Assembly (NCBI GenBank): GCA_963677765.1
Contig: OY782392.1
Span: 570,001 to 602,000, forward strand
DNA length: 32,000 nucleotides
Source: Candidatus Saccharimonadota bacterium
Lineage (GTDB): Bacteria; Patescibacteriota; Gracilibacteria; BD1-5; UBA6164
Reading direction: 5' to 3'
Position 1 is the stretch's first letter. Every line of letters starts with the position of its first letter. The notes below the pieces were generated by a model. That model saw nothing but the letters and a program-made list of their open reading frames with translations, was not told the DNA's origin and searched no databases. The position numbers and the translations under genes are program-made. Below are positions 1-29,910 of this stretch, in pieces.

Positions 1-3000
1 GATGAATTAGTTAAGAATTGATTATCAAGAAATATTGCAGTACCTACTACTTATTATTATGAAGATGGTGATGAAAAAAGTACTTATACTAATTATTTGT
101 TTTGAAATAAATGAACTAATTTAGTTTCAGCTGAACAATGTAGTATTTATAGATGAAGTTTAGATAATTGATGAACACTTGTAGAGGCTAATAGAGGTTT
201 AAATATTAATAATATACAAGTTGATCAATGAGTTTTAGATTGATTGCCAATTAGTTGAACTCAAAAGGCTCAATGTTATTCAAGAGTACAAAGTTGAACA
301 GCAATGAATTGAATAAATTGAATGAATACTCCATTTAATTTGGATCAAGATGCTTCTGCTGATTGAGAGCTTAAATTAAAAAACTCTAATTATAAAGGTT
401 CTATAACACCATTGTTTGATATGGGTTGAGCCAAAGCTATAGATGATGAATCAAAAACAAATAATCCTTTTTATTGTATAGATAATAACTATTTATTATC
501 AAATAAAGAAGAATATCTTTCAGAATTTTGGTGAGATTCAAGTTCTTGGGCTACTACTTATAAATTGGGTCAATATACATCAAATGTTGCATGATATTTT
601 TGATGAATGCAATCATGGTCATGTAATAGTACAAATAATGCAATAAATAAGGTTTATAGTTTTACAGATACATTTGATCAAAATTATATTAATTTTGATT
701 TTTGATTTTGTGAAGATAATAAAATATATTTAGATTGAGTTTTAGTTAAGTCATGAAGATATGAACAACTAACTTTTACTAATGATTATGATTATACTAG
801 TGAGGTTTTTGATGAAGATTTATGAGAAAATGTTTTTTTAACTACTACATTTTCATGAGATACTTATGAGTGTGATGGTTATTATATTACTGATCCAGAC
901 TGAAATGTTGTTGATAATTCATTATCATTACGGGAAATAAACACTTATAGATATAAATCTATACCATCTTATATAATGCATAAATCTCCTGAGCCAGAAG
1001 ATTTAACTACTCAATTGGATGTTAAAGTTACACCTAGTTTACCAGTTGATAAAGATAGATATATAGATTTCATTGCAGCTAATGGTTCTTATCAAAAAAT
1101 AAAATACCCATATTTATATAGATTAGAAATTGATGATAAATCAGATTTAAGTATAGAAAAAGTTTCTGAAGCTTTAGATGAAGTTTTAGATGAAAAATCA
1201 TATGAGATTAATCAAATTATACAAGAATCAATACCTAATTCATGATGAAGTACTTCTAATAATAATTCGACTTGAGAGACATGAAGTATAGCTGATTTTT
1301 TCTCGAGTTTATGAGATGTTTTTGATTGAAGTGTTGATAATCCATGAGAATATACTTCTTGATTAACAAATAATTCAAAGTTTATTGATAATCCAGAAAT
1401 TTATGAATTATTAAAAACATGAACTTATCCTCAGGCTAATTTTGATTTAAAACAATATTTAAAATCAAAATGAACTACTACATTAGAATTATGAGGTGAA
1501 TCAAAAACACTTAGTTATTATGATGTTTTAGTATTTGCTATATATTGGAATAATTTAAATTCAGTATCTGCAAAATATTGATTTGTTTTTGAAAATTATT
1601 TATCAGATCAAAATTTATGATGAGAAGAATATTTTTTACCAAAAAATAAATCTCAATATGAAATAGCTTATTTATGAGCTCCTGGATCAGTAACAGATAT
1701 GTATATATGACTAGATCCTGAATCTAAATGAGAAAATCCTTATTCAGATATTATTTGAAATAATCAAGATATATCAACTAAAATACTTTGATTAAATGTT
1801 TGAACTTCTAATTCTTATGATGAATGATTGTTTAAATGTGCTCCACCTGAATGAGTTCCTATTTGGGAATGGATTCCAGCAGTTATGTGTCGGTTATGAG
1901 AAATGTTACCTCCTACAATAAAAATTTCTGATTGAGCATGTTGACCTAGCCTTTTATCAAATGAAGAAAAAGAAGAGTTAGAACAATGTAATTGAGATGT
2001 AAATAAAAATTGAGTTAATGATTGTTTAGAAACTAAATTATCTTCTTGAAATATAGTTTTAGAATCAGATAGTAGTAAATATAATTATAATAAAAATATT
2101 TCATTAAAAGCCTCTATAAAGAGTGAAGATTGAAATGTTTTAACATATTTATGAGCAACTGATATAAAATTTGAATTATTAAAAGTTGAAGCATCAGTTT
2201 CTAGTGAAGAATCTATAGATTCTTGATCTAAAGAGATTATATTTGATTCAAGTTCTTCAACAAAGTCGGATTATTCTTTACTAGAAGGTTATTTATCTTT
2301 TGAACCTCTTACTATTAAGTCTAGTGCTTGAGTTTCAAATCATATGTTGACTACTAAGAATAGAGATTTAAATATTTATTTAAAAGCTAGTATTAATATT
2401 TATGATTCAGAATGAAATTTAAATATTTCAAAAGAGTCTGAAGAGTTAGAAATAAAAGTTAGATGAGATAGATTATTTAATTCTAGTTATAAATTAGATA
2501 ATTCTTCTTGAAATCTTGATATTATAAGTTGAAGTAATTTTGTTAAAGCAAATAGTAATTCAAATATATATTTATTTGATGGTAACATAAATTCAATTGA
2601 ATCAATTAAAAATCTTATTAATAATAATTCTACTTCGCAAGAAAAACTTGCTATAAAATTAGAAAATTTTGATAGATGATGAAATCCAATAAGTATAGCT
2701 TATCCTGTTAATATTATTTTATCTAAAGATTGAGAAACTATAGAAGAAAGAGAGTTAAATGCATCAAATATTTGATCTTTTGCTGAACTTTTTTCACTGA
2801 CTGAGTCATGAGAATATAAATTAGTAATAATTGATTCTAATTGATCTTCAACAAATAGAAATATTGATGTTACAGCTTGAAATCCTTCTAAAATAGATTT
2901 AGAACTTTCTACCACAATTATGGAAATTTGATGAAATGTTTCTACTAATTTCCTTACTATTTTAGATGAATATGATAATCCTGTATCATGAAATTTTTAT

Positions 3001-6000
3001 GATTTAAGATTTAATATTGATTGAAATTGAGTTGTTTTTAATGATAGTAACTCTAAAGATTTTTTAACTACAACTTATGAATGATATAAAATATTTAGGT
3101 TAAAATCTACAAGTAATAAATGAAAAAATACAATTAATGTTGCTTTATTAGATAACGATTGAAATTTTATAATTTCAGAATCAAAAGACTTAGATGTTTT
3201 AGATTGAATAAATATAAATATAAAAAGTTTAACATGAGATTTTAATGTATGATGAGAAGAAAATACTCTTCAAATTGAATTAAGGGATTGAAATTGAAAT
3301 ATTATAAAAAACTTTAATTCAAGAGTTTATCTTATTGTTGATCCAATGTATCTTGATATAGATAAACCTTATTTTGAAATAAATGCTTGAGTTTGATTAG
3401 CTAATTTTAAAACAAAAACTTTAGCGTGACAAGATATTCCTATTGAAATACAAGTAGAAGGACTTTCTACTATTGTAAATGATAGTATTACTATATTACC
3501 AGATAATGCTATTAAAATGGATTTGGTTCTTTCTAAGTCTAGAATGGAAGCTAATCCAGATATTAACTCTAATGTTAGTGTTGAGTTAAAAGATAAATAT
3601 AATAATTTAGTATTTACTGATAATTCAACTATCACAGAAATTGAAATACTACCTGAATATTCTCATATTTTGAGTTCAGATAAGGATAGTCAAGTTGTTT
3701 CTAATGGTAAGTCTATTTTTAAAATATATGGTACTGTTAATCCTTGAGTATGATATTTTAAAATATCTACCAATCCTTCACTTACACAAAATAGTTTTAC
3801 AGTAGAAGATGAAAATTGACAAATTACAATTAATTGAGTTGGTGAAAATGCTTGAAAAATAGAGACTTTTTATGTTTGGAATAAAGATAAAATTTCAAAT
3901 AAATTTTATAATTCAATATATACTACTCTTTTGGGTTCAAATTATTGAGATATTGATACAAAGGATTACTTAGCATGATCAATAATTTTTGATAAAAATA
4001 GTAAATGATTGGCCGTTACTTCTTTGATTAATAATCCTTTTTCATATGATGATACTTTTGGATTTTTTAATAATGGAGCTTTTATAAAGAAATATTCTGA
4101 TTCTGATTTATCACAATACATATCTTCAAATATATCTTTTGATAAATGAAATTTATTTGTAACATTGTTTAATAATTCTTTGAATACTTATATATGAAGG
4201 GTTCAATATAACTTGTGAGATGACTTTGATTTTGATACTTGTGATAAATTAACTAATTGTTGAACTTGAAATAAAACTAAATTATTTTGAGTTAATACTA
4301 ATGAAAACTTTAAATTTTATACAAGTAAAAATAGTCTTGTTTTACAAAATAATGTTTGAAAAAGCTTATTAGAAGTTAATGAAAATTGAACAATAGAAAG
4401 AAAAGGTTTATTGACTTTTGATTTATGAGAATCTAATAGTTCTGGATTAATAATAGATATAAAACAATGAGATACTAAAATTGCATCTTTATTTTATAAT
4501 TTTGTCTGAGCAGATATAGATATTTCTAGAGATGAAACTTCTTTTAGTGCTAAAAAAGATATTTCAAAAAACTCTATACTTATTTATTTAAATTCTTCAC
4601 AATATTGAAGTTATAAAAACTGAAATAATGACTCTTATGAAGTTAATATTTTTTATAATGATCCTTTTGCATCAGATAATGTATTAAATAATTTTTCAAA
4701 ATGAAATAATTATTCTTATGAAAATTTTGAAAATAAATGATGATTATGATGGTATGAATGAAATAAAACATTGTTATCATTTTCTTCATGAGAATCAGTT
4801 TGAGAATCTTTAAAAAATTATGCAAGTTTTTCTAGTATTAATTTATGAGACCCTGTTGTTAGTCTTAAAAAAATTAGAAAGAAATTTAATAATTCTGAAG
4901 AATATAAACAATTTGATTCTACTATATGAAAAGTTTTAAATAATGATGGAGATATTAGAGATTATAGATTATTAGATTATAATTCTGATTTAAGAGATGA
5001 TATTATATTAATTAAAAATGATTGATATATACAATTATTAGAAAATATTGATACAGAAAGTAATTATTTGGATAAGTGAAATCTTGCTAATATAGTTGAC
5101 TTAAAATCTACAGAACTATTAAAAACTTGAGATTTTACATGAGATTGATTTTTTGATATTTTCTTTGTAGGTGATGATTGACAACCTTATATGCTTAATA
5201 ATATAAGCAAAGATTTTTCTAGATTATCATTATACAATAAATTTAGATTAGATTGATCTATAATTAGAGCTGAGGTTTTTGATATGGATAATGATGGAAT
5301 AGATGATATTATTACTCTTGATGATGCTTGAGAAATAAATATTTTTTACTGATCTTGACCTAGTGCTAATCCAAATTTTACTAAACTTACAGTTAGTGAT
5401 GATTATTGAATTAAAATAAGTTCTGATGAAAGAAGTGATTCGGCTTATGTTTATTTTGATTGATTATATCAATTAGATTCTTGATTAGATAATACTGATA
5501 GAATATCAGAAAATGAAGCATATTTGAATGATTTAGTTAATCAAATCAATTCACAAAGTGAAACTGATATGCAAGAAAAAATAGATTATGATCTTATTAA
5601 TAGTATAATTTATGAACAAATAGCTTATAATAAGCCTGATAATTTAGTTGATTCAGTATCTTTAGATGATTTATCTAACTTGCCAAATTCTATAGATCAA
5701 ACTACTTTTATAAGGTCAGAGTATTCTAATTCAGCTTGAGTTGAAATTAAAAAAATATACACTGATAGAAATTGATGATTTTTAGCTTCATGAGATATAG
5801 TTGATATTGAAATTAATATAAGAAATAACTCTTTATCAACAATTGAAAATATTGCATATATAGAAGATGTATTAGAATATTTTACTTTAGATACATCATC
5901 TATCCAAAATAGTAAAGATTTAGAAATAAAAACACCTAGTGTTTATGATTTTATGATTGATGAGTTTTCTTTATCAAGTAATGAAACTTTAACTATAAAT

Positions 6001-9000
6001 TATTCAGTAGAAACAAAAGCTTTAAAATACTGACATATTCAAGTATGACTTTTTGAAGATTGAGAAGCTTGAGATGATTTATTTTGAGATATTTTATTAA
6101 AAGATAATGAAGAAAACTGTTGATTAGAGTTAGAGATTTTTAGATCTACTTCAGTAAGAACTTACCAAAAAGGTATAAAAGAGCCTATTTGTGATGATGA
6201 GATACCAGAAGAATTAAGCCAAAATTGAGTTGATGAAAACAATAATTGAATACCTGATTATATAGAAGAATTAACTTGAAGTACTCAGGCATTACAAGAT
6301 TATTCAGAAGAAACATTAAATGATATGTTTCTTGATAGTGATTGAGACTGATTGCCTGATGAAGAAGATTTGTTTAATTGATGATGAACTATTTCTATTG
6401 ACTTATGAAGTTTATGAGATGATATAGAAAATTGATTAGAATCAGTTGAAAACTTGATCAACTGAATGAGTTGTTGATTTAATAATTGAGCATGTTTTGC
6501 AAGTCCATTAAACTGGGCTCCACTTGCTCCTTGAGGAGATCCAACTTTTAATTGAATGATGATATGAGATTGACTTAATATAGATGAAGGTTTACCTATA
6601 TTTTCAGCTATAACATGGACACCTATTTATGTTCCTGCTTGTGTTCCAATACCTACTGTTTGGCCTATGTCTTCATCTGCTATATGGTCTGCTTGTTCAT
6701 CATGACCAGCATGAATGGATTGAGCTTGAGGTTCTCTATGAGTTTATTCTCCTACAAATACTTTTAGACTTTTTGTTACTCCTACACTAACATGATGAAT
6801 TTGAGTTGCTGCTTGTTTTTGAGCTCCCCCTATAGTTGCTTGATACTCAAACATGCCTTGAATTTCACCATTATTTCCAGGATGAAACTGTATAGTAGTA
6901 GCTAAGCCTTTAATATGATGTAGTAATGATTGATCTGATTGAAACCCTGCTTCTATGTGACAAGTTATAAATTGATGAAGTTTTTGATTTATAAACTGAA
7001 ATTGTAGTGTTGATGATTCTTGAAATTTATCTGTTGATAATTGATATGTTGATAATTACTATGATCATTTAGTTAATTGAACTAATTATGAGTGATTAAG
7101 TTCTGCAAATGAAGCAATTTCTGATCATTCTACAGCTTGAAATTGACCGCTTTTTGCTATAGCTTGAACTTGAAATGAAATATCTGTTACTGTTGATCCA
7201 AATAGTAAATCTGTAGACTTTTCTGATATAACTGAATTAGTTCAAAAAAGAATTCAAGCTTTTCCTTGATTTCTTATGAATTGGGTTACAAGACAAATAG
7301 AAGAAATAGTTACTAAATTAACTGATTTTCCGACTATTTTTGTAATATTACCTGATTTTTCTTGAATTTTTGATACTGACCTTACATGGGAAGAAAATAG
7401 AAAAATGTGGTTTGAAAATTCTTGAAATAAAAATAGAGCTGAATCTATGAATTGAGTTACTTTAGATTCAGATATAACTAAGTGAATTAATACTGATAAT
7501 ATTGAAAATGAAAAATTAAGGAATGCTTCTGAAAGTATAAACAGTGCAAGTTCAACTTTGAATGAAGAATTTAAAAAGGTTGATTCTTGAATTAAAGAAG
7601 CCTATGAATTTATTGGTAGTTTACCTTTGGTAAAAATAGAACAAGAACCAGTAGATATTCAAGTTCCTTGGATTTCTGTAACAGAAATAGATAAAACTAT
7701 TTTAACACGGGAAAAAACAATAGAATCTCGGAGAACAGAAATTAGTAATTTTTCTGATTCTTGGACTTATTGAGCTACATGTGATGAATGAGATCAAGAA
7801 TGTTTAGATAAAAATGCTGCTTATGAAAAGATTATAGTTGACGCAAATGCTTTAGTTTCATCATTAGAAGCTAATTTAGATGCTATAAATGACTACAAAG
7901 AAATTCCAGAAAAAATAAATAAACTTATTACAAAAAAGGAAGAATATTTAGAACAAATATTATGTAATATTGAAACTATTTCTGAAATTTTGGGATGACG
8001 GATAGGTAAAAACTGAGAAAGATTTAAAGCTTGGGTTGAATTATATGTTTTAATAAAAGCTATTTTGAAATCTTGGCAATTATTAATCGATGTATTTGTT
8101 GATTATGAAGAAGAGTGTAAAGAATGTAAAAATGAAAGACAAGATTTACTAGGTTCACAATTCGAATTAATTAGTATGGTTGTTCCAGATATACCTGTTA
8201 TTCAATTTCCAAAATGGCCTGATATTATTATTGATTTACATAATATAAGGGCATGAATGACAGTATTATTACCAGAATTTAATATATCAACTAAGCCTAT
8301 ATTATTACCAGAATTACCAAATCTTTATTTACCAGAATCTCCAAGTGTAAATATTAGTCTGCCAAGTTTACCAGTAATTCCTACTTTAGAAATACCAGAA
8401 TTACCTGACTTACCAAGCTTGCCAACAGTAGAGTTGCCTGATTTACCACCACCACCAACACTACCAAAAATGTTTGCACAATTAGAAGCTATACTTGATG
8501 TATTGAAACTGATAACTAAAGCTATGTGTATATTAAAATCTTCACCATTCCATCCAGAATGGAGGGCTTGAGATCAAATTGCTTTCTTAACAGAAAGAAA
8601 CTGATATCTACCTACTGATTTTCTTAATATATCAATGCCACAATTCTCATTTCCATTTATTGATGCAATAAAAGTTACAACATATGTTAATTTAGAATTT
8701 GAAACAGAATTTATTGTTGAACTTGCTAGACAAGTTGCAATGCCTATAAATAGTTTTACTTCAGATTTCACTAATTTGTTTAATATTAGTACTAATGATT
8801 TAGATTTCAGAGGTTATACTCCTAGTCAAATTGATATTGAAATTTGAACTGATGGTTGAGCTGATACTAATATATGATTAAATGAATCAAATAATTCTAT
8901 TTCTGAATTAGTTACATTTATTCTTACTAAAAATATATTATTAGGTAATGATTATATTAAAGATAATAAAGATGTTACAGTTACTAATTTAGAATTTAAA

Positions 9001-11733
9001 CAACTTATTTCAGAAAACTTATCTTCTGATAAATTTACTTCTGATCCAAGATTTGATGAATTAAGAGAACTTTGGAATAATGTAAATAATTATTCTTATT
9101 CTTGAGAAAATAAACTAATAGATGAGTTACAAAAAAATAATTTTGAAAAATTTGAAACTTTAAAAGATATTGTTAATACAGAAATTATTAAAAATAAATC
9201 ATTTAAAGAAGATTTTAATGATATTATTAATAAGAAAACAATAAAAACTTCTTTATATAGTGATACTCAAGTTGAAAACTATAATAATATGTTGGATACT
9301 TATAATAAGAAGTTTTATGATACTGCTATGAGTTTAGTTTCTTATGATTCAGTAAATGATAAAAATAAACAAGATATTATTAGATCATGAGAAAAATTAA
9401 TCACACAAGTTAATACTGCATTATCTTCTTATACTTCTTGAATTAAAAATACAAATAATTTAATTGCAGCAAATACTACTACTTCAGATAACCAATCTTA
9501 TACTTGAAACAATTATCTTAATAGTGCTGAAAATTCATGTTCTTCTTGAAATAGTAATTCAGATTATTCTTATGTTTATGAATGAATATATATAATAGAA
9601 GATGATAAATCATATAGATTATTTGATTATCTTAGTGAGTTAAGATGAGATGAAGAAGTTGTTATTACTGATAGTGAAAAAGATAGTGATGAAGATTTAT
9701 TATACTTATCTAATGGTACATTATATTTAAAAAATAATTTAGATATAATTGATGAAAATGATGGAAGTAAATCAAATCCATTATTTGTAAGTAAAAATGA
9801 TAATAAATTTTTAAATGATAGTAACTTTATTTCTTCAGTAAATAATGTTAGAGAAAGAAGTGTTTGATCATGAGTTATTAATTTATGATTTACTGGGGTT
9901 CCAGGTATATATAATTATAGATTTAGCTTTTATACTTTAGTTGATAGATTTTTAAATGAAGATAATACTTCATATACACCTATTTTTAGAAAAAAATCTA
10001 TTGTTGATTCTTTTGCTTGAGTAAATGAAGTAACTTTTGTAGAAGAAAATGATAATTATATTATTAGTAAAAATGTTGTTTCTATTGATAATTTATGAGA
10101 TTTAAGATGAGTTAAAATTGAAACAGACGAATTAAAAAATATAACTAATGATATAATAGCAGGTAAGGTAATAGTTTTATCTAACCAAACTAAAGTATAT
10201 TCTTGAGATTCTACAGCTGTAATAAGTTATCTTGATGATAATAATGACTTAAAAAATGTTGTTATATCAAAAAATAGAAATATGGAAGTAAAAGGGTCAA
10301 TGAAAGTTGTTTCTATAACTTGAAATGCATATGTAAAAACTTGAAATGATCTAATACTTGAATGAACTGATATTTTATCATTAAAATGACTACCTCTTTT
10401 TGAATGAACTAAAATATCATATATAGGTAATGATTACGAAGTAAGAGATAATACTTATATTGATTTAAAATATTATGATGGCTCTGAGTTACCAATTTGA
10501 TTTACAAAAATTTCAGATTGGTCATATAATGATTTATGAAATATTTCTACTAATTATCTTCTTTCTATAAGTAGAAATAATGATTATTATTATTGAGTAA
10601 TAAATTGATTTAAAGATTGATTAATATCTACTAGCTCAAAACAAATACTATTATCACCACAAATTCGTGCTGATAATAGTATTCCAGAAATTAATTTTTC
10701 ATCTATAAGAATTCCTGTATATCAACAAATGGATATAAATTTAACAAATAGTATTTATGATAATAATTGAGTAGCTCAAGTTTATATCGATTTTGATTTA
10801 GATATTGATAGTTCATGAGATTGAGATCCAAGAAATGACAATGATAGTTCATCTATGGATACTTTAGATATTTATAGAAATTCTGATTTAGATTTTGTTT
10901 TAAAATTATGAACTTTCAAAGAGTTATATGACAAAGAAATTTGAATAATTGCAATTGATGATAATTGAAACGAGGCTTTTCAAAAAGTAAAATTTGAAGT
11001 ATATAGCCCTATACCAAAAATTGTTAATTATGAAGATAACAATATAATTTGAAATATAAATGAAAATTTAAATCAAGAACCTATCTCTCTATATAGATAT
11101 AGATGATGAGTTATATCTAAACTTACATGAGATGAAAATTGAAATATAGTTTATACACAAGATTGAGAATATAATTTTTGATTAACTGAAAATACTACTT
11201 GAAAAGTAAATATATTTAGTGATTGAGTTGTAATTGCAGAGATTAATGAAAATACTGGTTTAATTAACTTGAATGATTCAAGTTATAATATTGATGTTTT
11301 AGAGTCTAATAATATAAATAACGATACTGTTTATCCAAAAATGGTTTTAAATAAATCTTGAGAAGAATTATTTTATCAAACTATAAAGGTTAAATCATGA
11401 ACTAAAGTTAATATTGTTACTGATTTTTCTGGTATAGAAGAAAATGGTATTTATGTACAATTTTTAGATAAAGTTAATTATAATTTTAATTTAATACCTG
11501 AAAATGCTAGTTATAACTGAGGGGATATGATGATTTATAGATTAAATGATTCTAATAACAGTCCTTTATTTATAATATTTAAAGATTGAAGAATAAATAC
11601 TTTAAATAACAACTATAGCTTAAAATATGATAGTTTTAATGACTATATAGTTATAAAATTATTTGATAATAATTTTAATAGAGAAGTAGCCAGTGTTCTT
11701 TATAAGGTTGATAGTGACTTTATAATAAAATAA
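1..11733 (+). CDS. Giant secreted/surface mosaic protein, 5'-partial (at least 3,910 codons in window), putative adhesin
   Basis: Read codon by codon, frame 1 has no TAA or TAG from nt 1 to the TAA at 11731-11733. The standard-code ORF-track fragments at 976, 3517, 5524, 8065, 8257 and 8635 all lie in this frame and are separated only by TGA. The ORF contains Ig-like repeats, FG-GAP-like repeats (GDFTGDGFFDIFFVGDDG; VFDMDNDGIDDIITLDDAGEINIFYG), DxDxDG-type motifs (DSDGDGLPDEEDLF) and a proline-rich LPxLP block. A strong hairpin follows the stop. Confidence 0.8.
2040..3790 (+). other. Array of Ig-like (Big_1/invasin-like) beta-sandwich repeats inside the giant CDS
   Basis: The translation shows recurring ~90-100-aa modules with the pattern D-x-(D/Y)-(G/N)-N-x-(V/I), then T..G.....(L/I)...., for example TILDEYDNPVSGNFYDLRFNIDGNGVVF...KGKNTINVALLDNDGNFII and VSVELKDKYNNLVFTDNSTITEIEIL...SNGKSIFKIYGTVNPGVGYFKI. 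This is pattern recognition only, with no HMM run. Confidence 0.45.
5128..5352 (+). other. FG-GAP / VCBS-like (integrin-alpha-type) repeats inside the giant CDS
   Basis: The peptides K-T-G-D-F-T-G-D-G-F-F-D-I-F-F-V-G-D-D-G-Q-P-Y-M-L-N-N and V-F-D-M-D-N-D-G-I-D-D-I-I-T-L-D-D-A-G-E-I-N-I-F-Y-G match the D-x-(N/D)-x-D-G-x-x-D-hydrophobic consensus. Several of the Gly residues are TGA-encoded. Confidence 0.6.
8257..8475 (+). repeat. Proline-rich (L/I)P-x-LP peptide repeat block inside the giant CDS
   Basis: The translation reads LLPEFNISTKPILLPELPNLYLPESPSVNISLPSLPVIPTLEIPELPDLPSLPTVELPDLPPPPTLP. This is visible directly in the ORF-track peptide at 8257. Confidence 0.75.
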
Positions 11734-12226: not shown

Positions 12227-14452
12227 TTAATAATCGTAATAATAATCATCGTAATAATAATAATTATTTTCTTTTATTCAAAAAGCTTCTTTATAATCTA
12301 TAAAATTAGAAGGTTCTTTTATTTTTTCTTTATTTTCAATAGTTTTAGAATTGTTTTCTATTTCTATATTAAGCATTTTAGAATTTCATTTTAATATTTC
12401 AAATAATACTGATATCTTGTTTATATTATCTGTTTTATAAAAATCTATATTAAAATTAGCATCGATTTTATTATTTTTTCCTTCTATATTTGATCAGCTT
12501 AATATTGCTAAATTATCTGATAATTTTTCTGACAATGATATATTATTGTTTAATTTTAGATGGTTTTTAGAAAAATCTCCACTTGTTGTAATTTCTATAT
12601 CTTTTTCTTTATTTTTTCAGAAAATATCTAGCTTAGAGTTTATTTTTTTATTTACTATTTTGAAATCAAGATCATATACTTTAGAGAAATCGTCATCATA
12701 TATATATTCCCATGTACTATAATCATAACTTCATTTTTTTATTTCTAAACTAGATTCCAAATTCATATTATTTAACATGAATTGATTATCTAAACTAGCA
12801 TTAGATTTTAGTATAAAGTTACTATAATCATCTTTGTAAATAACATCTAAAGATAAATTCTTTTTGTCTAAATATATATTTCATAACAAGTTTTCTTTAG
12901 AACTTTCTATTTCTTTATTTGAAAAATCTATTTTTAAACTATTAAAACTATTATTGTAATCCGTAGTTCAATTTATATCTCAAGAAAATATATATTTATC
13001 ACCATATTCCCATGTATCATAATTATATCATTTTTGAACAAAGTAAAAGCTTCATTCAATTTTTTTATTTTCTAATTTTAATTTAGCATAATTTTTATCT
13101 ACTGAAAAATTAAAATCAATATTAGAAAACTTATTATTATCATCTAGTTTAGAATTAAATATAAGTATTCAGTTATCATATTCATTTATTTCTAAATTAA
13201 GTTTTTCATTTGCTATATAATCAAGACTAATATCTCAATAATAATCTTTATAAGAATAATTAAATTTTAGTATTTTAGAATTATTAAAACTAAGTTCTCA
13301 TTTATTATATACAAAATTATCAGATTTTCATTCAAATCATATACTTGTAGAATTGTTTTCTATTATCATATAGAATTCTCAGTTTTCACTTAAATCACTA
13401 AGTAAATCTTCATATTGAGAGTTACTACATTCTTTTCAATTAAATGGATCAAATTTATTTGATATTTCTTTTAGAGTATCACAAGCATATTTACTAGGCT
13501 TTACATAATATTTATTTCATGATTTTTTATATGCTTCTAGCATAGGTTTATTAAGATATCTGTTTATATCACTTTTTATATTATCTATTTCTAGATTGTT
13601 TAATAGATTCATTACTTCTTGAGATTCCTCATCACTATATTTTATGTATTTATTTTCTTTTGCCAATTCTTTTAATTTATCTATGTATTCTTCATAATAC
13701 TCTAGGTCTTCATTTGATATTAAATCTAATTCTTTTAACATTATATATATTTCTCAATCTTTAGAAATCATATCCAATATAGTTTCAAGTTTGAAATTTA
13801 TATCTTCTCAGTCTATATTTCAATTTATTTTAGTTGAAATATCTCATTTTATACTAGAATCAAAATTATAATTTTTTGCTTCATAGTTATTAAATCAGAA
13901 ATCAAAATCTAAGTTTCATAATTCTTCTTGATTGAAGCTTCATTTTATATTAAAATTACCTGTTTCTTTTATGTTGTTAGTTTTTTCAAACTCTGATACC
14001 AATTTATCTATAAAATCATTGCTAGAGTTGGCTATATTGTTTTGTAATTTTAATATTTCAGAGTTAACTATTTCTTTGTCTTCTACTGTTATATTTGATT
14101 CAAATATTTCAGCAGTTTTTGATTCTTCTAATGCTAATAAAGCAATATTAACTTTTGAATATAAATATATAAGTGTATTTTTTATTTCATTATTATTTAT
14201 TTCATCTATATTAATTTTTTCTAAATTATTTTTTACAGTTTTTAATTTAGAATAATTGTCTTTTAGTCAATCTATTAATGAATCGATAGTTTTTATATAT
14301 TTTTTTCATTTGATTGATTTATTTAATTCTCATTTAGAAATTATAATTTCTTTAGTATAAGAATTTTTTTCGTCATAAGCATATATATTAGAAAAAGATA
14401 GTATATTTATACTAAAAATAAAAACCAATATATAGCTAACAATTTTTTTCAT
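12227..14452 (-). CDS. Secreted hypothetical repeat protein (741 aa) with a Tyr/Asp-rich C-terminal tail
   Basis: The reverse-strand ATG is at 14452-14450 and the TAA at 12229-12227, giving 2226 nt (742 codons including stop). The N-terminus MKKIVSYILVFIFSINILSFSNIYAYDEK looks like a signal peptide. Two ~100-aa modules share Y-(D/S)-T-W-E-Y, seen on the + strand as tattcccatgta near 12705 and 13005. The protein ends ...ENNYYYYDDYYYDY. The standard-code ORF 13517..13741 (-) is an in-frame fragment of it. Confidence 0.7.
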
Positions 14453-14484
14453 AAAAAAAGGGGTTATAAATATATTATACCCCC
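14453..14484 (-). terminator. GC-clamped hairpin plus U-tract between the Wzy_C-like gene and the 741-aa gene
   Basis: On the minus strand the element reads GGGG(G)TATAA-TATAT-TTATA(A)CCCC followed by TTTTTTT and then directly the ATG. It has a 9-bp stem with one bulge and the only G/C cluster in the spacer. Confidence 0.55.
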
Positions 14485-14489
14485 TTATT

Positions 14490-15734
14490 TTATTTTTTTG
14501 CTATCAATAATCAAATCAAAAGAAATGTTAGTATTGACAAATATGTTGTTTCAAATGTATGTAAAAATATATTCATAACTATTATTGCTGATAATACTCA
14601 AAAATATATTTTAGAAACTCAATATAATCTTACTAATGTAATTCACAAAATTGATAAAAATGTTATGAAGAATATTATTCATCATTCTGTTAATACTTGT
14701 ATAAACCAACTTTCAGGAATATAGTATTGTTCATCTTCTTTTGTTAATTTTTCAGGATAGATATTTCTATAAGCAGGTCATGATTCAGCTAGTCATGCTC
14801 ATAGTGGTTTTTCTTTGAATCTATCTATTCAAATTTCCATTCTATCAAAATGTCATGTTGTAGATGATGTTCTAAATATTATATTTTTTAACTGATCTTG
14901 AAAAATAAAACTAAATGCTCATATTGTTATTATAAAAAATATTGATATATGAATTAAATATTTTTTTAATTTTCTATATATAAATTTGAAATTTAATAAT
15001 ATAAGTATTCATACTGAAGTTCATATTCATAAAATAGCACTTCTAGAATAAGTTAATACAACTAACCATAGAAAAAATAACATAGTAGCTACAACATAAA
15101 ACTCCCATTTTTTCTTTTGTAAGTATAAAAAAGTTCAAGAGAATAGTATCAAAAAGTATGCCATTGCACTTGGACCATCAAATATTCACTGAAACCTTCT
15201 TATTCAAGAGTTTTCTAATCAATGGTATATAGGAACTCATCATTGATACACCCAGTTACTTATGTAGTCAATATATCAAAACTCCATTAAAAACTCTTCT
15301 TTTAATCTAAATTTAATTAAAAAACTAAACAATAAAGCTCCAGCTCATGAATATAGGAAAGTTTTAATTATATCTATTGTTTTTATTTTTAGAAATTGTT
15401 CTCAGTGTTTATATATCAATAAAACAATTAGGAACATAAAATCATATCTTCAACCATATATTATACTGTTTAATCATAATCAATTATATATGGTTATTCA
15501 TACTCAATATATTATATAGAAAAATACTAGATAATCTAAAATTTCGAACTTTGGAAATTTTTTAGCTTTGATGAATTCATAAATTAAACTGAAAAAAATT
15601 ATTACTAATAATCATTCTTTAAATATAAATCATATTTTATCTATTCAAGTTAGGTGATTTAGATATACTGATAAAAAAACATAAAAAGGTAAAACTATTA
15701 CTGCAAACCTTGTAAGTATAGTAAATAAGTTCAT
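14490..15734 (-). CDS. O-antigen ligase / Wzy_C-family polytopic membrane protein (414 aa); possible O-oligosaccharyltransferase or surface-polymer ligase
   Basis: The reverse-strand ATG is at 15734-15732 and the TAA at 14492-14490, giving 1245 nt. The translation has many hydrophobic helices plus the family hallmarks ...RRFQGIFDGPSAMAYFL..., ...LTYSRSAILG..., ...TTGHFDRMEIGIDRFKEKPLGAGLAESGPAY... and ...IPESWFIQVLTEGGI.... Confidence 0.75.
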
Positions 15735-15775
15735 TATTATTTAAAAATAAATTAAAATATAAATTAATAATAAAT

Positions 15776-15808
15776 AAAACAATAAAAAAGTAAATTTTTT
15801 ATTGTTTT
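15776..15808 (-). terminator. AT-rich hairpin overlapping the GT4 stop codon (putative terminator)
   Basis: A 14-bp perfect stem aaaacaataaaaaa / ttttttattgtttt has a 5-nt loop. The stem contains only one G:C pair, so its stability is modest. Confidence 0.45.
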
Positions 15809-16929
15809 ATTATGTTTTTTATAAAATTTATATGATTTTCTTCATCAAATTTTTCTGCTTGTTTTATACAGTATTCTTTTTTATACAATCAATTTATATT
15901 ATTCGAATGAAATATTTTGAATTTTTCTATAAAATCTTTTCATTCTTTATCTTCAAAAAAGTATCAAGTTTTTCATGAGATAACAGTTTCTTTTAGTCAT
16001 CATCAATTATATGCAAATACAGGTTTTCAAGCAGCCATTACTTCTATAGGAACTATTCAAAAATCTTCTTCTCAAGGAAAAACTAGTCATAGAGAACTTT
16101 GTACTAAAGATACTAATTCATCATCATATTTTGCTCATAAAAATTCAATATTTTTATTTTTTACTAATTTTTTTAGTTCTGCTTCATAATCTCATTTTCA
16201 TATTATTAATAATTTTTCATTTAGATGATTAAATCAATTAATGGCAATATCAATTTTTTTGAATTCTGTTAATGCAGATATTATAATATAATAATTTCAG
16301 TATTTATTTTCTTTTTTTATTTCTTTTTGAAATCTTTTAATTTCTACAGGTGGGTATAATAATTCTGAGTCTTTTCTATAGTATTTTTTTATTCTGGATC
16401 TAGTATTATTACTATTAGCTAAACTTGTATCCACTCTATTACTTGCAATATAATCCCATTTTCTATTTTCAAATAAAATTTTATTTATAATAGGTTTTAG
16501 AATATATTTTTTAAATCAATTATTTAATCATAGATCATTTTTATATTCATTAGTCCAGTCCCATAGATATCTAGCTGGTGAATGGTAGTAGACAATAAAC
16601 TTTGTTTCTGGTTTTGTTATTGCTCAGTGTGCAAATCATGAACTAGAGCATAATACAATATCATATTTTGAAAAATCAAGACTTTCTACACTTTTTGACA
16701 TAAATGGAAGACAAAATCTTTGTTTTTTAGTTAGTTTATATATTTTTTGAGTTTTTAAATTAAATACTTGTTTGTCTATTTTTTCTCTTTTAAATATTTT
16801 TCCTACTTTTTCTTCATCATATATCAATGTAAATAAGTCAGTATCAGGGAAAGCTTTTAACCAGTTTTCTACTACTTTTTCTGCTCATCATAGTTTTATA
16901 AGCATTTCATGTAATATAGCTATTTTCAT
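15799..16929 (-). CDS. Glycosyltransferase family 4 (GT-B fold, 376 aa)
   Basis: The reverse-strand ATG is at 16929-16927 and the TAA at 15801-15799, giving 1131 nt. The N-terminus MKIAILHEMLIKLGGAEKVVENW is typical of GT4. The C-terminal E-x7-E region reads [33 protein letters not shown], with several Gly residues TGA-encoded. The standard-code ORF 16636..16827 (-) is an in-frame fragment. Confidence 0.85.
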
Positions 16930-16986
16930 CTTTTTCTCTTTATTATATTTTTTAATGTTTTTTAAATAATAATTATTTTTTGAAAA

Positions 16987-17013
16987 AAATGAATTTTTTG
17001 TTAAAATTCATTT
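16987..17013. promoter_or_regulatory. Perfect 11-bp inverted repeat in the divergent GT4/pilin intergenic region
   Basis: The repeat aaatgaatttt-ttgtt-aaaattcattt ends 23 nt upstream of the first pilin ATG at 17037. Confidence 0.35.
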
Positions 17014-17036
17014 AAACTAGTATTTAAATAAATTTT

Positions 17037-17459
17037 ATGAAAAAACTTATTAATTATTTTTTTATAACTATATTGTTACTTTTTTCTTTCTCTTTTGTTA
17101 ATATAACACATGCAGAGATAAGAGATTGATGTGAAACTTGAGGATGCTTGGATGAACCAAATTTTGAAATAAATGTATGAAGTATTACTCCAGGTATTGT
17201 TTCTCCTTCAAATGCACAAAGTTTAGAGCAAAGAGCTAATTGGATTTTATGAACTATTATACAAAATCTAATGGTAGCACTATGAGTTCTTTCTGTTTTA
17301 ATAATGACTATTTGAGCTTGATATATTATATTAAATAATTGACAAGATGAATTATTAAGTAAATGAAAATCTATTTTTATGGCATGAATATATGCTATGG
17401 TTATAGCTTTAACTTCTTATTACTTAATAGCAATAGTTAGATATATGTTATATGCTTAA
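17037..17459 (+). CDS. VirB2/TrbC-like T4SS-pilin-family protein, paralog 1 (140 aa)
   Basis: The translation is MKKLINYFFITILLLFSFSFVNITHAEIRDGCETGGC...ANWILGTIIQNLMVALGVLSVLIMTIGAGYIILNNGQDELLSKGKSIFMAGIYAMVIALTSYYLIAIV. The architecture is a signal peptide, a Cys pair, TM1, a short charged loop and TM2. The ATG is at 17037 and the TAA at 17457-17459. Confidence 0.65.
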
Positions 17460-17469
17460 AAAAATAATT

Positions 17470-17856
17470 ATGTTTAGTAAAATATCCTTAGTAATATTAT
17501 CTTATTTTTTATTGTTTAATAGTTCAGTATTTGCTTCGTCAGCTCCAACTGTTAATTGTGCTTGACTTCCATGATGTAAGGATAATTCTATAGTAAATCC
17601 TTCATCGGCATCACAATTAAACAATAATATTTGATTGAGCTTTATTGATAGTATAGTATCAAACTTGATACAATTTGTTGCTGTATTTGCTGTATTTGCA
17701 CTAATAATTAGTTGATTTATGTATTTACTTTCTTCATGAGATGAGGAGAAAACAAAAAAAGCAAAAAAATGGATTATTTGGTCTTTGGTTGCAGTTTTAT
17801 TATCTATTTCAGCATGGTCAATAATAAACTACTTAAATAGTATTCAAATTTGATAA
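17470..17856 (+). CDS. VirB2/TrbC-like T4SS-pilin-family protein, paralog 2 (128 aa)
   Basis: The translation is MFSKISLVILSYFLLFNSSVFASSAPTVNCAGLPGC...LIQFVAVFAVFALIISGFMYLLSSGDEEKTKKAKKWIIWSLVAVLLSISAWSIINYL. The loop S-S-G-D-x-x-K-x-K-K-A-K between two TM helices is the signature I recognise from CPR and Gram-positive T4SS pilins. Confidence 0.7.
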
Positions 17857-17873
17857 AATTTAATAAAATAAAA

Positions 17874-18260
17874 ATGAAAAAAATATATTATATAATTTTA
17901 TTTCTTGTATTTACTTGAAATAATTATGTTTTTTGAAACAACACTGATGGAAGTATTAATATCAAAGATAAATTGATAAATTCTACTAATTCTAATTTTG
18001 CTTGATGAAAGTTAAATGATGATAATTGATTATTATCATTATGAGCATTATTTGCTTGGTTAAAAACTGAGCTTATGGCAATTGTTTCAGTTGTAGCTAT
18101 AGCTATATTTATTTATATAGGTATTAAAATGGCTACTGCTAGATGAAATCCAGAAGAATTCAAGAAAGCTTGGCTTCATTTTGTTTATGCTATAATATGA
18201 ATATTTGTTGTTTTCATGGCTTATTGAGCTGTTACTCTTATTTCAAACTTAAATTTATAA
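17874..18260 (+). CDS. VirB2/TrbC-like T4SS-pilin-family protein, paralog 3 (128 aa)
   Basis: The translation is MKKIYYIILFLVFTGNNYVFG...LMAIVSVVAIAIFIYIGIKMATARGNPEEFKKAWLHFVYAIIGIFVVFMAYGAVTLI. It has the same signal/TM/charged-loop/TM topology but no Cys pair. Confidence 0.6.
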
Positions 18261-18269
18261 TAAAATATA

Positions 18270-18674
18270 ATGAAAAAAATAATTTTAATATTTGTTTTAA
18301 TTTTTTCTTTATTTATATCAGTTAATGTATATTGATCTTGTAGTTATAATGAATGATCATCTATATCTTCAAATCTTAATGATTGTTTATCTTGAACTAA
18401 ACTTGTTAATATTACTGATTGAAATGCTAAAATTTCTGATTGATTCTGAAATTATATAAAAAAATGGACAAATAATATAGCTTTATATTTGTGAGTATTT
18501 GCTGTTTTTGCGATAGTATTTGGTTCTATTATGCTTACTATTAGTGCTTGAGAAGATGAAAAAATAAGTAAAGCAAAAAATATAATAAAGTGGTGAATTT
18601 TAGGTTTTTTAGCTGTAATATCTGCTTCTTTTATTATAAATCTAATAATTAGAATAGTTTATAATTTATGATAA
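18270..18674 (+). CDS. VirB2/TrbC-like T4SS-pilin-family protein, paralog 4 (134 aa)
   Basis: The translation is MKKIILIFVLIFSLFISVNVYGSCSYNEGSSISSNLNDC...IALYLGVFAVFAIVFGSIMLTISAGEDEKISKAKNIIKWGILGFLAVISASFIINLI. The TAA at 18672-18674 overlaps the next ATG as TAATG. Confidence 0.65.
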
Positions 18675-24362: not shown

Positions 24363-25528
24363 TGAAAAAAATATTAGATATTTTATTGATAGCAGTTTTA
24401 ACGATTTTATTGTTTAATCTGTTAGCATGAGATAATGAAAAAAAATTAAATGATACATTAAATATTTCATTTGTTGAAAACAGTTATACTATACCTGCAT
24501 CTGTATGAGTAAATATTAATAATCAAACATCAACTGGAGTAATATTAAATACTTGTAATGATATTAATTTACTATATTCATGAAACAAATTAACTTTTGA
24601 TGAATCTTTTTGTAAAGATATAGAAGTAAAATCATGAGAAAATTATTTGCTTGATTATAAAGATTATTATTCTAAATTTGAAAATGTATGAGAATATACT
24701 TTAAATGCTAAAGTTTGAGAAAAAGAGTATTTTGATCAATTTGAATTAGATAATAAATGAACTATAAAAAAAATATTTATTTATCTTTTCTATGCTCCAA
24801 TTTATAATTTAGTTATATTTTTAATAGAATTATTTAATTGAGTATTTGGTTGGGCTATAGTTTGAGTTACAGTTATATTGAGAATCTTGTTACTTTGGCC
24901 TCAACATAAAATGATGTTAAGTCAAAGAAAGTTACAATCAATTCAACCTAAAATTAAAAAAATTCAAGAAGAATTTAAGTGAAATCAACAAATGATAGGT
25001 ATGAAAATGATGGAATTATATAAAAAAGAAAATGTAAATCCAGTATGATCATGTGGTTTTTTACTTATTCAAATGCCTATATTATTGGTAATATATTATA
25101 TAATTATATGAATACAAAACCCATCTAATATATATTATTTATACGGTTTTCATGATTTATTTACTTTATCTGAAATAAACTTTAGTTTTTATTGATTAAA
25201 TTTATTACAAAATTGATGAATTCAAGGTTTAATTTTAGCTTTAATTGTTGCATTAATACAATTTATACAAATAAAATTATCTCTTATTAATAAATCAAAT
25301 GATGATAAAAAATCATGAGTAGTTTTAGAAAAAAAATCATGAGATGATAAATATAGTAGTATGATGCCTGATCCTGATATGATAAATAAATTTATGTTAT
25401 ATTGAATGCCTGTAATGGTTTGAATATTTACATATAGCTTATTTGCTGCAGTTTGAATATATTGGTGAATTTCTACATTGTTTATGTTATTTCAACAATT
25501 AATTGTTAATAAAATAATTAAAAAGTAA
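24362..25528 (+). CDS. yidC: Membrane protein insertase YidC/Oxa1 family (388 aa)
   Basis: The translation is MKKILDILLIAVLTILLFNLLA...GWAIVGVTVILRILLLWPQHKMMLSQRKLQSIQPKIKKIQEEFKGNQQMIGMKMMELYKKENVNPVGSCGFLLIQMPILLVIYY.... The TAA is at 25526-25528. Confidence 0.85.
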
Positions 25529-25534
25529 AGTTGA

Positions 25535-25570
25535 CTAATAACAATATCTTTGCACTTATTAGAGTTTTTT
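25535..25570 (+). terminator. Weak hairpin plus T-run after yidC (possible terminator)
   Basis: A 7-bp stem ctaataa / ttattag has a 14-nt loop and is followed by agtttttt. Confidence 0.3.
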
Positions 25571-25605
25571 ATATTATATATACATTATATGTTAATTTTT
25601 TAATT

Positions 25606-26283
25606 ATGTTTAAAAAGTCTTTGGCATTATTTATGGTATTATGATTAACTTCAACTAATCTTTTATATTCTTATGATCAAGAAGTTGAATGTTCTTCAGA
25701 TTCAGTTTTCTCTGAATATTCATGTACTCAATGTTTTGATGGTTGAGAAAAATCAGAATGAGCGTATATAAGCTTATTAAGTGATGATTGGGAAAATATT
25801 TCTGGTGTTTCAAAAGTTTTATATACTGAACAACAAAAAATGCCAATAATGCATAACTTAAGTAGTAATGCTTCTTGGTCTCAAACTCCTTCTTCGGAAG
25901 ATTTTTGGAGTTATACTGAAGATTTTGAAAACCTATATTCAGAAGAACAATTATGATATGTTTTACAACCAGGTCAAAGTGTAAAATGGTTAGAATCTAA
26001 TTTATCTTATGCTTATTCTTTGGATACTAATACAGCTTCAAAATGAGAAAATATCTGACTATTAGTTTATTCTATATTAAGTCATAATATATTAGATTCA
26101 GGAGAAGTTTCTATGAATAGTGAGGCTCATAATGAATGTGTTTTGTATAAATCATGAGATGAAAATGATGTTACTCCAACTGTACCACAAACTTTACCTC
26201 AAACAGGTCCTGCTGAATTTTTATTATTATTAATATTAGCAATGATATTAGGTTTTTGAATAATAAGATTTAGAAATAGTTAA
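25606..26283 (+). CDS. LPXTG-type (LPQTG) sortase-anchored surface protein (225 aa)
   Basis: The signal peptide is MFKKSLALFMVLGLTSTNLLYS. The C-terminus is TLPQTGPAEFLLLLILAMILGFGIIRFRNS, that is LPQTG (26194-26208), a hydrophobic helix and a basic tail. The TAA is at 26281-26283. Confidence 0.75.
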
Positions 26284-26311: not shown

Positions 26312-26427
26312 TTGTTTATATTGTTTTTATTAATATATATAAAACTTAATTGTCAAGTTGCTTTTTTGTAAATCCATTTATAAATATGATATTATTAATT
26401 TGTATTTAAATTTTAATAAAAATAATT

Positions 26428-29902: not shown

Positions 29903-29910
29903 TTTTCTTT

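Follow-up and report, generated by a model that had tools for sequence, protein, structure and literature searches.

Overview of the locus

We analyzed a 32,000-nt stretch of DNA from contig OY782392.1 (positions 570,001 to 602,000 of the forward strand), hereafter the window, which is a chromosomal segment of a Candidate Phyla Radiation (CPR) bacterium that uses genetic code 25. The first 11,733 nt of the window contain the 3' part of a single giant gene, and the protein that it encodes belongs to a large colinear family characterized by an approximately 800-residue conserved core. The features assigned to this gene are listed below with their nucleotide coordinates in the window and residue numbers of the window protein; all of them are on the plus strand.

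1-11733, plus: 3' part of the giant gene, 3,910 codons and a stop codon; open for TAA and TAG, with 242 TGA codons read as Gly, and colinear with orthologues
1-1980, plus: N-proximal region, residues 1-660, with nine conserved Cys columns (alignment conservation and occupancy profile)
1996-2031, plus: calcium-loop-type motif D-x-N-x-N-G-x-x-D (CNGDVNKNGVNDC) at residue 666, in register in 45 of 50 orthologues (motif-level assignment only)
2050-3789, plus: diverged Ig-like beta-sandwich repeats of the invasin/intimin type, about 100 residues each, residues ~684-1263 (profile self-comparison; Pfam matches in orthologues)
3868-4890, plus: conserved region downstream of the Ig-like array and ahead of the FG-GAP repeats, of unknown fold, residues ~1290-1630 (alignment conservation)
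4897-5346, plus: about three FG-GAP/VCBS-type repeats with a period of ~52 residues, residues 1633-1782 (Pfam FG-GAP_3; self-comparison)
5698-6105, plus: possible DUF11/TIGR01451-type beta-sandwich, residues ~1900-2035 (weak, sub-threshold Pfam match)
6232-6369, plus: two thrombospondin-type-3-like calcium loops (DENNNGIPDY and DSDGDGLPDEED) at residues 2078 and 2112, in register in 47 and 32 of 50 orthologues (motif-level assignment only)
6448-8790, plus: family-defining core of ~800 residues, residues ~2150-2930 (alignment conservation; profile search)
7795-8115, plus: long predicted helix of ~100 residues within the core, residues ~2599-2705 (low-confidence AlphaFold2 model, residues 576-683 of the orthologue fragment P0001)
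8266-8475, plus: Pro/Leu-periodic segment within the core, residues 2756-2825, with 19 Pro and 17 Leu, ending in LPPPP (conservation in 50 orthologues)
8986-9444, plus: predicted helical region after the core, residues ~2996-3148 (low-confidence AlphaFold2 model, residues 8-159 of the tail of the orthologue P0022)
9568-11730, plus: predicted beta-rich C-terminal region without a known domain, residues ~3190-3910 (AlphaFold2; orthologue scans)
10042-10524, plus: predicted all-beta domain of ~160 residues, residues 3348-3508 (AlphaFold2, confidence 66-89)
10801-10851, plus: calcium-loop motif DIDSSGDGDPRNDNDSS (motif)

An open frame under genetic code 25

Frame +1 contains no TAA or TAG from the first nucleotide of the window until the terminal TAA stop codon at 11731-11733. 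The single uninterrupted open reading frame (ORF) described in an earlier note on this DNA therefore holds under code 25. The frame includes 242 TGA codons (6.2% of all codons), along with 47 GGN and 23 TGG codons; its status as an ORF thus depends on TGA being a sense codon, and the standard code would chop it into fragments of about 16 codons. The earlier note had implied this dependence through its mention of table 25, and left the 242 in-frame TGA codons unstated. All long ORFs of the window, which has a GC content of 23%, are TGA-rich and GGN-poor like the giant ORF. TAA and TAG constitute 7.7% and 10.6% of codons in the other two plus-strand frames of nt 1-11733, and at these frequencies a run of 3,910 open codons would arise by chance with a probability of about 10^-136 at most.

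Three independent tests verified that the window DNA uses code 25, in which TGA encodes Gly, and not code 4, in which it encodes Trp. Among the proteins encoded in the window, TGA occupies invariant Gly positions of the UMP kinase PyrH (KIS-G-EAL and F-G-G-G-T-G-NPYFTTD), of RNase J (HAHLDHI-G) and of a GT1 glycosyltransferase. Across orthologous giant genes, the usage of TGA and GGN codons is inverse and follows the GC content, ranging from 297 TGA and 16 GGN at 22% GC to 3 TGA and 375 GGN at 58% GC. When the 242 TGA positions were compared with nine distant high-GC orthologues, Gly was found in 54.6% of the aligned cells (background, 8.6%) and Trp was not among the five commonest residues, whereas the TGG positions of the giant ORF correspond to Trp in 61% of the aligned cells. 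Neither a tRNA-Gly with the UCA anticodon nor any other tRNA or Rfam RNA was found in the 32-kb window, and the sequence that follows the giant gene's stop codon showed no intrinsic terminator.

A colinear family of giant proteins

By BLASTP, residue 2 of the window protein aligns to residue 412 of a complete orthologue, and the alignment continues to a common C-terminus. The N-terminus thus lies outside the window, as the earlier note had stated: the window copy lacks about 375-400 N-terminal residues (~1.1-1.2 kb of 5' sequence), which in orthologues comprise a signal-peptide-like segment and the first domain. The full-size protein has approximately 4,290 residues, and the window holds the 3' nine-tenths of its gene. 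The closest orthologue (L059), a 4,286-codon gene in a metagenome-assembled genome of Candidatus Gracilibacteria (JASMTS010000012.1), is 72.7% identical overall. This value is near those of the GT1 glycosyltransferase (75.5%) and Wzy_C (82.6%) encoded nearby, and above that of the adjacent secreted 741-residue protein (53.6%).

A search with the central 809 residues as a query returned only five database proteins, all of them Gracilibacteria fragments from contigs with gene calls broken at TGA. When only TAA and TAG were treated as stops, such contigs yielded frames of 4,362 and 4,363 codons that are colinear with the window protein. Using one genome per GTDB species, we found that at least 130 genomes or loci encode a relative of the core, and fetched 80 of these loci. 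Complete ORFs of 4,000-4,550 codons are present in about 45 of the 80 loci, at GC contents of 20-59%. The high-GC orthologues with just 3-9 TGA codons have an equal frame of 4,360-4,400 codons, and standard-code relatives are called as single genes of 3,870-4,699 residues. A 50-sequence MAFFT alignment of the window protein with 49 orthologues has an occupancy of ~0.95 over the whole length, and relatives with as little as 23-30% identity are still colinear with residues ~320-3880 of the window protein. No significant DNA tandem repeats were found in the giant ORF. Together with the colinearity with 49 orthologues, this argues against a chimeric or collapsed assembly.

The giant protein thus represents one colinear, vertically conserved family, which is encoded in at least 130 GTDB species genomes and is conserved over its full length in considerably more than 100 species of Gracilibacteria, with more distant members in Peregrinibacteria; its gene is apparently a single-copy core gene of Gracilibacteria. 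The earlier note had called the protein a mosaic with an unrecognized order of modules. Neither description suits it, since the architecture is fixed and colinear, and the order of modules is that of a large undescribed family.

In public databases the family occurs mostly as TGA-split fragments from standard-code gene calling (loci L001-L004 and L085). Two further entries, P0021 and P0023, were mistranslated with code 4, so that Trp stands where Gly belongs (W ~5%, G ~1%), and were dropped as targets for structure prediction. Because database entries are mostly split at TGA or mistranslated, routine annotation has largely missed the family, which calls for caution when such entries are used. 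In one contig (CALDZW010000037.1) the locus was recovered in both orientations with identical ORF coordinates (L049 and L050), suggesting that the giant gene is part of an inverted duplication or of a palindrome made by the assembly.

The conserved core

The highest conservation in the alignment is reached at residues 2650-2900, where the orthologues are 70-77% identical to the window sequence (mean over 49 species), with additional peaks at residues 2150-2300 and 2400-2450. The core that spans these peaks begins with a Gly/Pro/Cys-rich segment (residues 2150-2340) with eight conserved Cys, and includes a helical segment (residues ~2560-2727) that holds the motifs LKSWQ and E-C-x-x-C-x-N-E-R. 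Other invariant motifs of the core are CGFxxGxC, NWAPLAPG, PGGNCIV, FPKWPDI..DLHNIR, a Pro-Leu array that leads to LPPPP, and PEWRAGD. Of these, NWAPLAPG, PGGNCIV, LKSWQ, FPKWPDI, LPPPP and PEWRAGD are all present in the window protein at residues 2171-2858. A HMMER profile of the core, searched against 1.84 billion representative proteins, retrieved 633 clusters at E<=1e-3, of which 340 are at E<=1e-30. Nearly all full-length matches, including those from Peregrinibacteria, are 3,700-6,066 residues long and carry the core at about 55-70% of their length. No Pfam, NCBIfam or PDB match to the core was obtained in the orthologues tested.

The AlphaFold2 model of the core, built on the P0001 fragment with 19 sequences, has a mean predicted local distance difference test score (pLDDT) of 42.5 and a predicted template modelling score of 0.32, and only the helical segment at about window residues 2540-2672 reaches pLDDT 55-85. 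Within the long core helix the pLDDT is 60-85 over residues ~2599-2660 and ~50 beyond. A coiled-coil-like region proposed in the earlier note falls here; its helical nature is suggested by this low-confidence model of the orthologue fragment.

In the Pro-Leu segment, conservation among 50 orthologues amounts to 90% or more at the Pro and Leu positions, and the segment lies inside the most conserved block. Because of this conservation, it is a constrained structural element and not a floppy linker, and the previously suggested LPxLP stalk is not supported.

The N-proximal region and the Ig-like array

The N-termini of the orthologues resemble signal peptides in that they combine a basic n-region with a hydrophobic h-region and an A-x-A-like site, and signal-peptide-like starts are also observed in the distant relatives. 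The N-proximal region contains two variable, indel-rich patches at residues ~251-300 and 401-450. The N-terminal ~1,000 residues gave no Pfam, NCBIfam or PDB match in six orthologues.

Self-BLAST of the giant protein for internal repeats was negative, and the repeats emerged by profile self-comparison only. For residues 660-1320, hhalign detected repeats of ~100 residues with probabilities of 96%, 93% and 78%, and the clear units of the array are at residues 684-820, 952-1049, 1054-1157 and 1160-1263. A full-length Pfam scan found no Ig-like family in the window protein. In a scan of the short Ig tile in nine orthologues, Invasin_D3 (best E-value 3.2e-8), Big_1 and Glyco_hydro2_C5 each matched in eight, as recurrent hits below the cutoffs. 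The window tile itself scores below the gathering cutoffs for both Big_1 (PF02369; 17.9 vs 34.9 bits) and Invasin_D3 (PF09134; 23.6 vs 33 bits). In distant relatives the cutoffs are reached, by Invasin_D3 with 41.7 bits in P0078 and by Glyco_hydro2_C5 with 84 bits. A weak PDB profile match relates the array to an S-layer Ig domain (E-value 0.011). An Ig-like identity of the array is thereby supported at the level of the fold. With regard to the ~1.7 kb of Big_1-type repeats described previously, the ~100-residue Ig-like units were recovered and strict membership in Big_1 was not.

FG-GAP repeats, calcium loops and the middle region

Between the Ig-like array and the FG-GAP repeats, residues ~1290-1630 gave no match in six orthologues; the sole recurrent Pfam family, FG-GAP_3, falls downstream. 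In the window protein, FG-GAP_3 (PF13517) matches residues 1711-1771 with 23.1-24.5 bits, under the gathering cutoff of 26.9 bits. The same family scores 33.8 bits in the orthologue L001, above the cutoff, and matches in all six of the orthologues scanned (best E-value 1.1e-12). By self-comparison, the repeats align to each other with hhalign probabilities of 96% and 82%. Despite its sub-threshold score, the window segment is evidently homologous to FG-GAP_3, judging by its orthologues, in agreement with the assignment of FG-GAP repeats to nt 5128-5352 in the earlier note.

Sites with the calcium-loop pattern D-x-[DN]-x-[DN]-G-x-x-[DNE] were identified at residues 666, 1761, 2078 and 2112. The loop at residue 1761, of the form D-x-D-x-D-G, lies within one of the FG-GAP repeats and is kept in 41 of 50 orthologues. 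The two thrombospondin-type-3-like loops start at nt 6232 and 6334, and their conservation in register bears out the Asp-rich motifs reminiscent of calcium-binding sites that had been noted at nt 6226-6375.

A DUF11-type domain at residues ~1900-2035 is weakly indicated by a match in one of six orthologues (E-value 0.078) and by a score of 21.2 bits (cutoff, 24.6 bits) at the equivalent position of P0078.

The C-terminal region and distant relatives

The C-terminal 900 residues were modelled with AlphaFold2 on the tail of P0022 with seven sequences. The mean pLDDT of the model is 48, with one confident beta domain, and the helices that follow the core have pLDDT 50-72 for approximately the first 50 residues only. 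A Foldseek search of this model against PDB yielded nothing at E<=0.001, returning generic cupin-like matches with TM-scores below 0.3. The C-terminal ~1,000 residues had no Pfam or PDB match in six orthologues, and PDB profile searches of five regions of the giant protein produced nothing convincing. No HemolysinCabind or RTX Pfam family matches the window protein or the C-terminal regions of the orthologues. FecR was considered because a Peregrinibacteria relative matches it at the equivalent place, and was rejected for the orthologue group of the window protein after none of 12 orthologues matched it or anything else.

The giant protein ends in ...YKVDSDFIIK, without a hydrophobic tail. The window protein contains no C-terminal transmembrane segment, LPXTG motif or S-layer homology (SLH) domain, and SLH is also absent from the C-terminal regions of six orthologues, so the earlier observation that there is no recognizable C-terminal anchor stands. 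Apart from the signal peptide of the orthologues, no convincing transmembrane segment was found, and the alignment has 24 conserved Cys columns. This combination fits extracellular disulfides.

The distant relatives differ in this part of the protein. P0124, annotated in NCBI as 'S-layer homology domain-containing protein [Candidatus Peregrinibacteria]', and P0078, annotated by JGI together with P0084 as a TIGR01451 (DUF11) repeat protein, share the Pfam order of Ig-like, FG-GAP, DUF11 (weak, and in P0078 only) and core. In both of them SLH (PF00395) scores above the cutoff of 20.8 bits (52 bits in P0124 and 24 bits in P0078), and TSP3_bac repeats are also present. Matches to FG-GAP and SLH were likewise found in P0105, a 3,870-residue gene product from a 1.93-Mb contig. 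The SLH and TSP3 domains of these relatives are located in a C-terminal extension past the end of the window protein; the C-terminal position of TSP3_bac is thus unlike that of the thrombospondin-type-3-like loops in the window protein. The SLH and TSP3_bac domains of the distant colinear relatives place the family at the cell wall.

Proposed function and alternative explanations

The best explanation of the sequence data is that the giant protein is a disulfide- and calcium-stabilized, lineage-defining protein of ~4,290 residues. We propose, with a probability of roughly 55%, that it functions as a Sec-exported fibre or adhesin of the cell envelope; any specific role of the core is held with less confidence. 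The protein would be exported by Sec through the N-terminal signal peptide that is seen in the orthologues and would form an elongated surface structure, in which the diverged Ig-like array could act as a rod or spacer and the FG-GAP repeats with the calcium loops as an integrin-like binding or rigidifying module. The Ig-like and FG-GAP parts, which vary, may point away from the cell, and the more variable N-proximal and C-terminal regions may make contact with the exterior, most probably with a host or prey cell surface. In contrast, the 800-residue core would perform a constant, self-directed job, such as oligomerization, docking to the envelope of the cell itself, or some step of a mechanical or membrane-active kind, because its invariance suggests that it does not face variable ligands. 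In the distant relatives the protein is tethered to the wall by the C-terminal SLH domain, as part of an extension that is missing in the orthologue group of the window protein.

Ig-like repeats, FG-GAP repeats and calcium-loop motifs, as predicted here, are hallmarks of adhesins and integrin-like proteins, and the envelope-related neighbourhood, which is partly syntenic in 18-20 loci, also counts for a role in the envelope. The signal-peptide-like starts of the orthologues, the 24 conserved Cys columns, the SLH and TSP3_bac domains of distant relatives, and the colinearity and wide occurrence of the family further favour this proposal. The surface and attachment role suggested in the earlier note is plausible, in line with the discussion of giant proteins in related CPR bacteria (PMC8080830, PMC4736985).

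Several observations weigh against this proposal. For about 70% of the giant protein, the core among it, Pfam, NCBIfam and PDB gave no match, and no homology to a characterized protein can be detected; both AlphaFold2 predictions are of low overall confidence, and the fold search was uninformative. The scores of the window copy for the Ig-like and FG-GAP families are below the curated cutoffs, and three FG-GAP blades alone cannot make a seven-bladed propeller. The signal peptide is seen in orthologues only, as the window starts downstream of the 5' end of the gene. Because the orthologue group has no recognizable wall or membrane anchor, the protein could be released rather than displayed. Finally, adhesins normally evolve fast, and to find such strong conservation and a colinear build without repeats among them is unusual; a structural or machine-like role would account for these features no less well.

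Such a structural role is the basis of a tentative alternative, which is compatible and partly overlapping with an adhesin. In these wall-bearing, single-membrane bacteria the protein could be mainly a component of the envelope that supports its integrity or shape, for example an S-layer, a scaffold associated with one, or a strut that spans the wall, and not a host-specific adhesin. Its class-wide conservation in an apparent single copy, at rates like those of housekeeping membrane enzymes, speaks for such a component; the gene adjoins housekeeping and envelope genes and no variable island, the invariant core suggests self-assembly, and SLH occurs in distant relatives, one of which carries an S-layer homology annotation in NCBI. 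However, SLH is absent from the orthologue group of the window protein, a length of 4,300 residues is far above that of a typical S-layer protein, Ig-like, FG-GAP and calcium-loop modules are more usual in binding proteins, and the indel-rich patches at residues 251-300 and 401-450 suggest surfaces exposed to ligands or to immunity. It is improbable that the protein is a contact-dependent weapon or feeding device, in which the Ig-like and FG-GAP parts deliver the core and the core breaches the envelope of the host as a membrane-active, translocation or fusion-like module of a new kind. The lifestyle would suit it, as the genomes of Gracilibacteria are tiny, symbiosis has been inferred for them, and their relative Vampirococcus, an epibiotic predator, possesses giant surface proteins (PMC8080830). 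So would some properties of the core: its Gly/Pro/Cys-rich hydrophobic stretches with borderline transmembrane hydrophobicity in some orthologues, the ~100-residue modelled helix, amphipathic helices, the rigid Pro-Leu array, and a conservation far beyond the need of a ligand-binding surface. These arguments come from composition and a low-confidence model, and there is no similarity to a known toxin, pore-former, fusogen, Rhs/Tc or MARTX element and no detected lytic enzyme domain. By sequence inspection, the hydrophobic helices carry conserved charged residues and therefore look amphipathic and not membrane-spanning.

That the frame is an artefact, whether non-coding DNA, a mis-assembly or separate genes joined by overlooking TGA stops, is effectively refuted. 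Although the frame has 242 stops under the standard code and the public gene calls of its relatives are split into many small genes, the assignment of TGA to Gly by three tests, the equal frame in TGA-poor high-GC orthologues, the single genes of standard-code relatives, the end-to-end colinearity with 49 orthologues and the vanishing chance of such an open frame all speak against it. 

It can be speculated, though we regard this as doubtful, that the family is the central component of an unrecognized host-interaction organelle that defines the Gracilibacteria-Peregrinibacteria lineage, with the core as a new fold that either assembles as oligomers into a structure for attachment or feeding, or drives one, where the cell touches its host. 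If true, this would explain why about 1% of the coding capacity of a 1-Mb genome is spent on one gene, as well as the colinearity across class-level divergence and a change of the genetic code.

Comparison with known giant proteins

Giant surface proteins with Ig-like and FG-GAP repeats are already known as a general kind in CPR bacteria. Ten giant membrane proteins of 1,392-4,163 residues, with integrin, DUF11 and fibronectin domains, were described in Vampirococcus lugosii (Absconditabacteria) and proposed to mediate host attachment (Moreira et al. 2021, PMC8080830); the largest of them, VAMP_16_20, is a 4,163-residue 'hypothetical protein'. Compared by description, they resemble the window protein in size, in their putative surface location and role in host attachment, and in belonging to a sister CPR lineage with code 25. 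Unlike the family described here, they are listed singly in that study, which defines no orthologous family or core module. Large extracellular proteins, in part Cys-rich, have also been proposed to mediate attachment in Candidatus Peribacter riflensis (Peribacteria; Anantharaman et al., PMC4736985), and a survey of huge proteins found that Peregrinibacteria are enriched in uncharacterized ones (PMC11573180). The Peregrinibacteria protein MBI2464194.1 (4,699 residues), from the same wider clade, is a colinear relative of the window protein. The Peregrinibacteria relatives differ in using the standard code, in their C-terminal extension with SLH and TSP3, and in being 23-30% identical to the window protein.

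The Ig-like array resembles invasin and intimin (Big_1, Invasin_D3) in its tandem ~100-residue domains, in the D-x-Y-G-N strand motif, and in the likely formation of a rod that projects a binding module. In contrast to these proteins, the giant protein has neither the LysM/beta-barrel outer-membrane anchor nor the C-type-lectin tip, its Ig-like repeats account for only ~14% of its length, and the window copy falls short of the cutoffs of these families. The FG-GAP repeats with D-x-D-x-D-G calcium loops are shared with the beta-propellers of integrin alpha and with bacterial FG-GAP/VCBS proteins; integrin alpha differs in having seven blades against about three detectable ones, in its beta-subunit partner and in its context.

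Other multi-thousand-residue, calcium-dependent, Ig-like exported proteins with a role in attachment include the RTX adhesins MpIBP, SiiE and LapA, the 7,651-residue adhesin of Mobiluncus and Giant1-5 of Apilactobacillus (PMC5550230, PMC6272769, PMC10619420, PMC12863079). These adhesins have dozens of near-identical tandem repeats, evolve fast, are confined to narrow lineages, and use a type I secretion system for export or a sortase anchor, whereas the present family is distinguished from RTX and repetitive adhesins by non-repetitive DNA, class-level colinearity and a unique invariant core. In the literature searched, no paper defines this giant orthologous family, its fixed architecture or its core. 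The new elements are therefore a class-wide colinear, non-repetitive family of ~4,300 residues, an unannotatable 800-residue core conserved like a housekeeping protein, and the presence or absence of SLH by lineage. Gracilibacteria and their relatives are almost wholly uncultured, and what was an odd ORF is now a defined, alignable family in more than 100 species. Its core is more conserved than many housekeeping proteins and resists current structure prediction, and the family offers a lineage-wide candidate for the study of the cell-host interface.

Genomic neighbourhood

The neighbours of the giant gene in the window are ordinary cellular genes, which encode RNase J, PyrH, L34, RnpA and YidC, as well as Wzy_C, GT1, T4SS_pilin-like paralogues, a Peptidase_Mx1-like protein, a PG_binding_1 protein and a small protein with an LPQTG sortase signal. 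The downstream order is kept in 18-20 related loci and consists of a convergent gene for the 741-residue secreted protein followed by Wzy_C and GT1; T4SS-pilin-like paralogues then follow in 6-11 of the loci. By sequence inspection, the genes upstream in close relatives resemble SerS, SmpB and an M23 peptidase. No operon partner or secretion system for the giant gene is evident, as the upstream genes of relatives look like housekeeping genes and the downstream genes are convergent.

Individual neighbours in the window are as follows:

12227-14500, minus: 741-residue secreted Asn/Lys-rich protein ending in YYYYDDYYYDY, convergent to the giant gene and syntenic in 18 loci; no Pfam match
14490-17016, minus: Wzy_C protein (O-antigen-ligase/O-oligosaccharyltransferase-like) and GT1 glycosyltransferase, 69-83% identical in the closest related loci listed
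17028-18674, plus: four tandem paralogues of ~130 residues, which all carry a signal peptide and, at the C-terminus, a membrane hairpin
25522-26283, plus: 225-residue secreted protein ending in TLPQTGPAEFLLLLILAMILGFGIIRFRNS, an LPXTG sorting signal (LPQTG, transmembrane segment, RFRNS); no Pfam match
26410-29691, plus: 1,087-residue protein with PG_binding_1 at residues 173-235 and a Gly-rich C-terminus, otherwise unannotated
29899-31998, plus, continuing past the window end: secreted Cys-rich protein with a poly-Ser stretch of ~95 residues followed by (SSSSGG)n; no Pfam match

Three of the four tandem paralogues match T4SS_pilin (PF18895) above the cutoff. The sorting signal of the 225-residue protein indicates that the organism uses sortase anchoring. 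The poly-Ser gene contains a perfect DNA repeat of two 90-nt copies at 30490-30666, which is likely a hotspot for length variation or assembly error.

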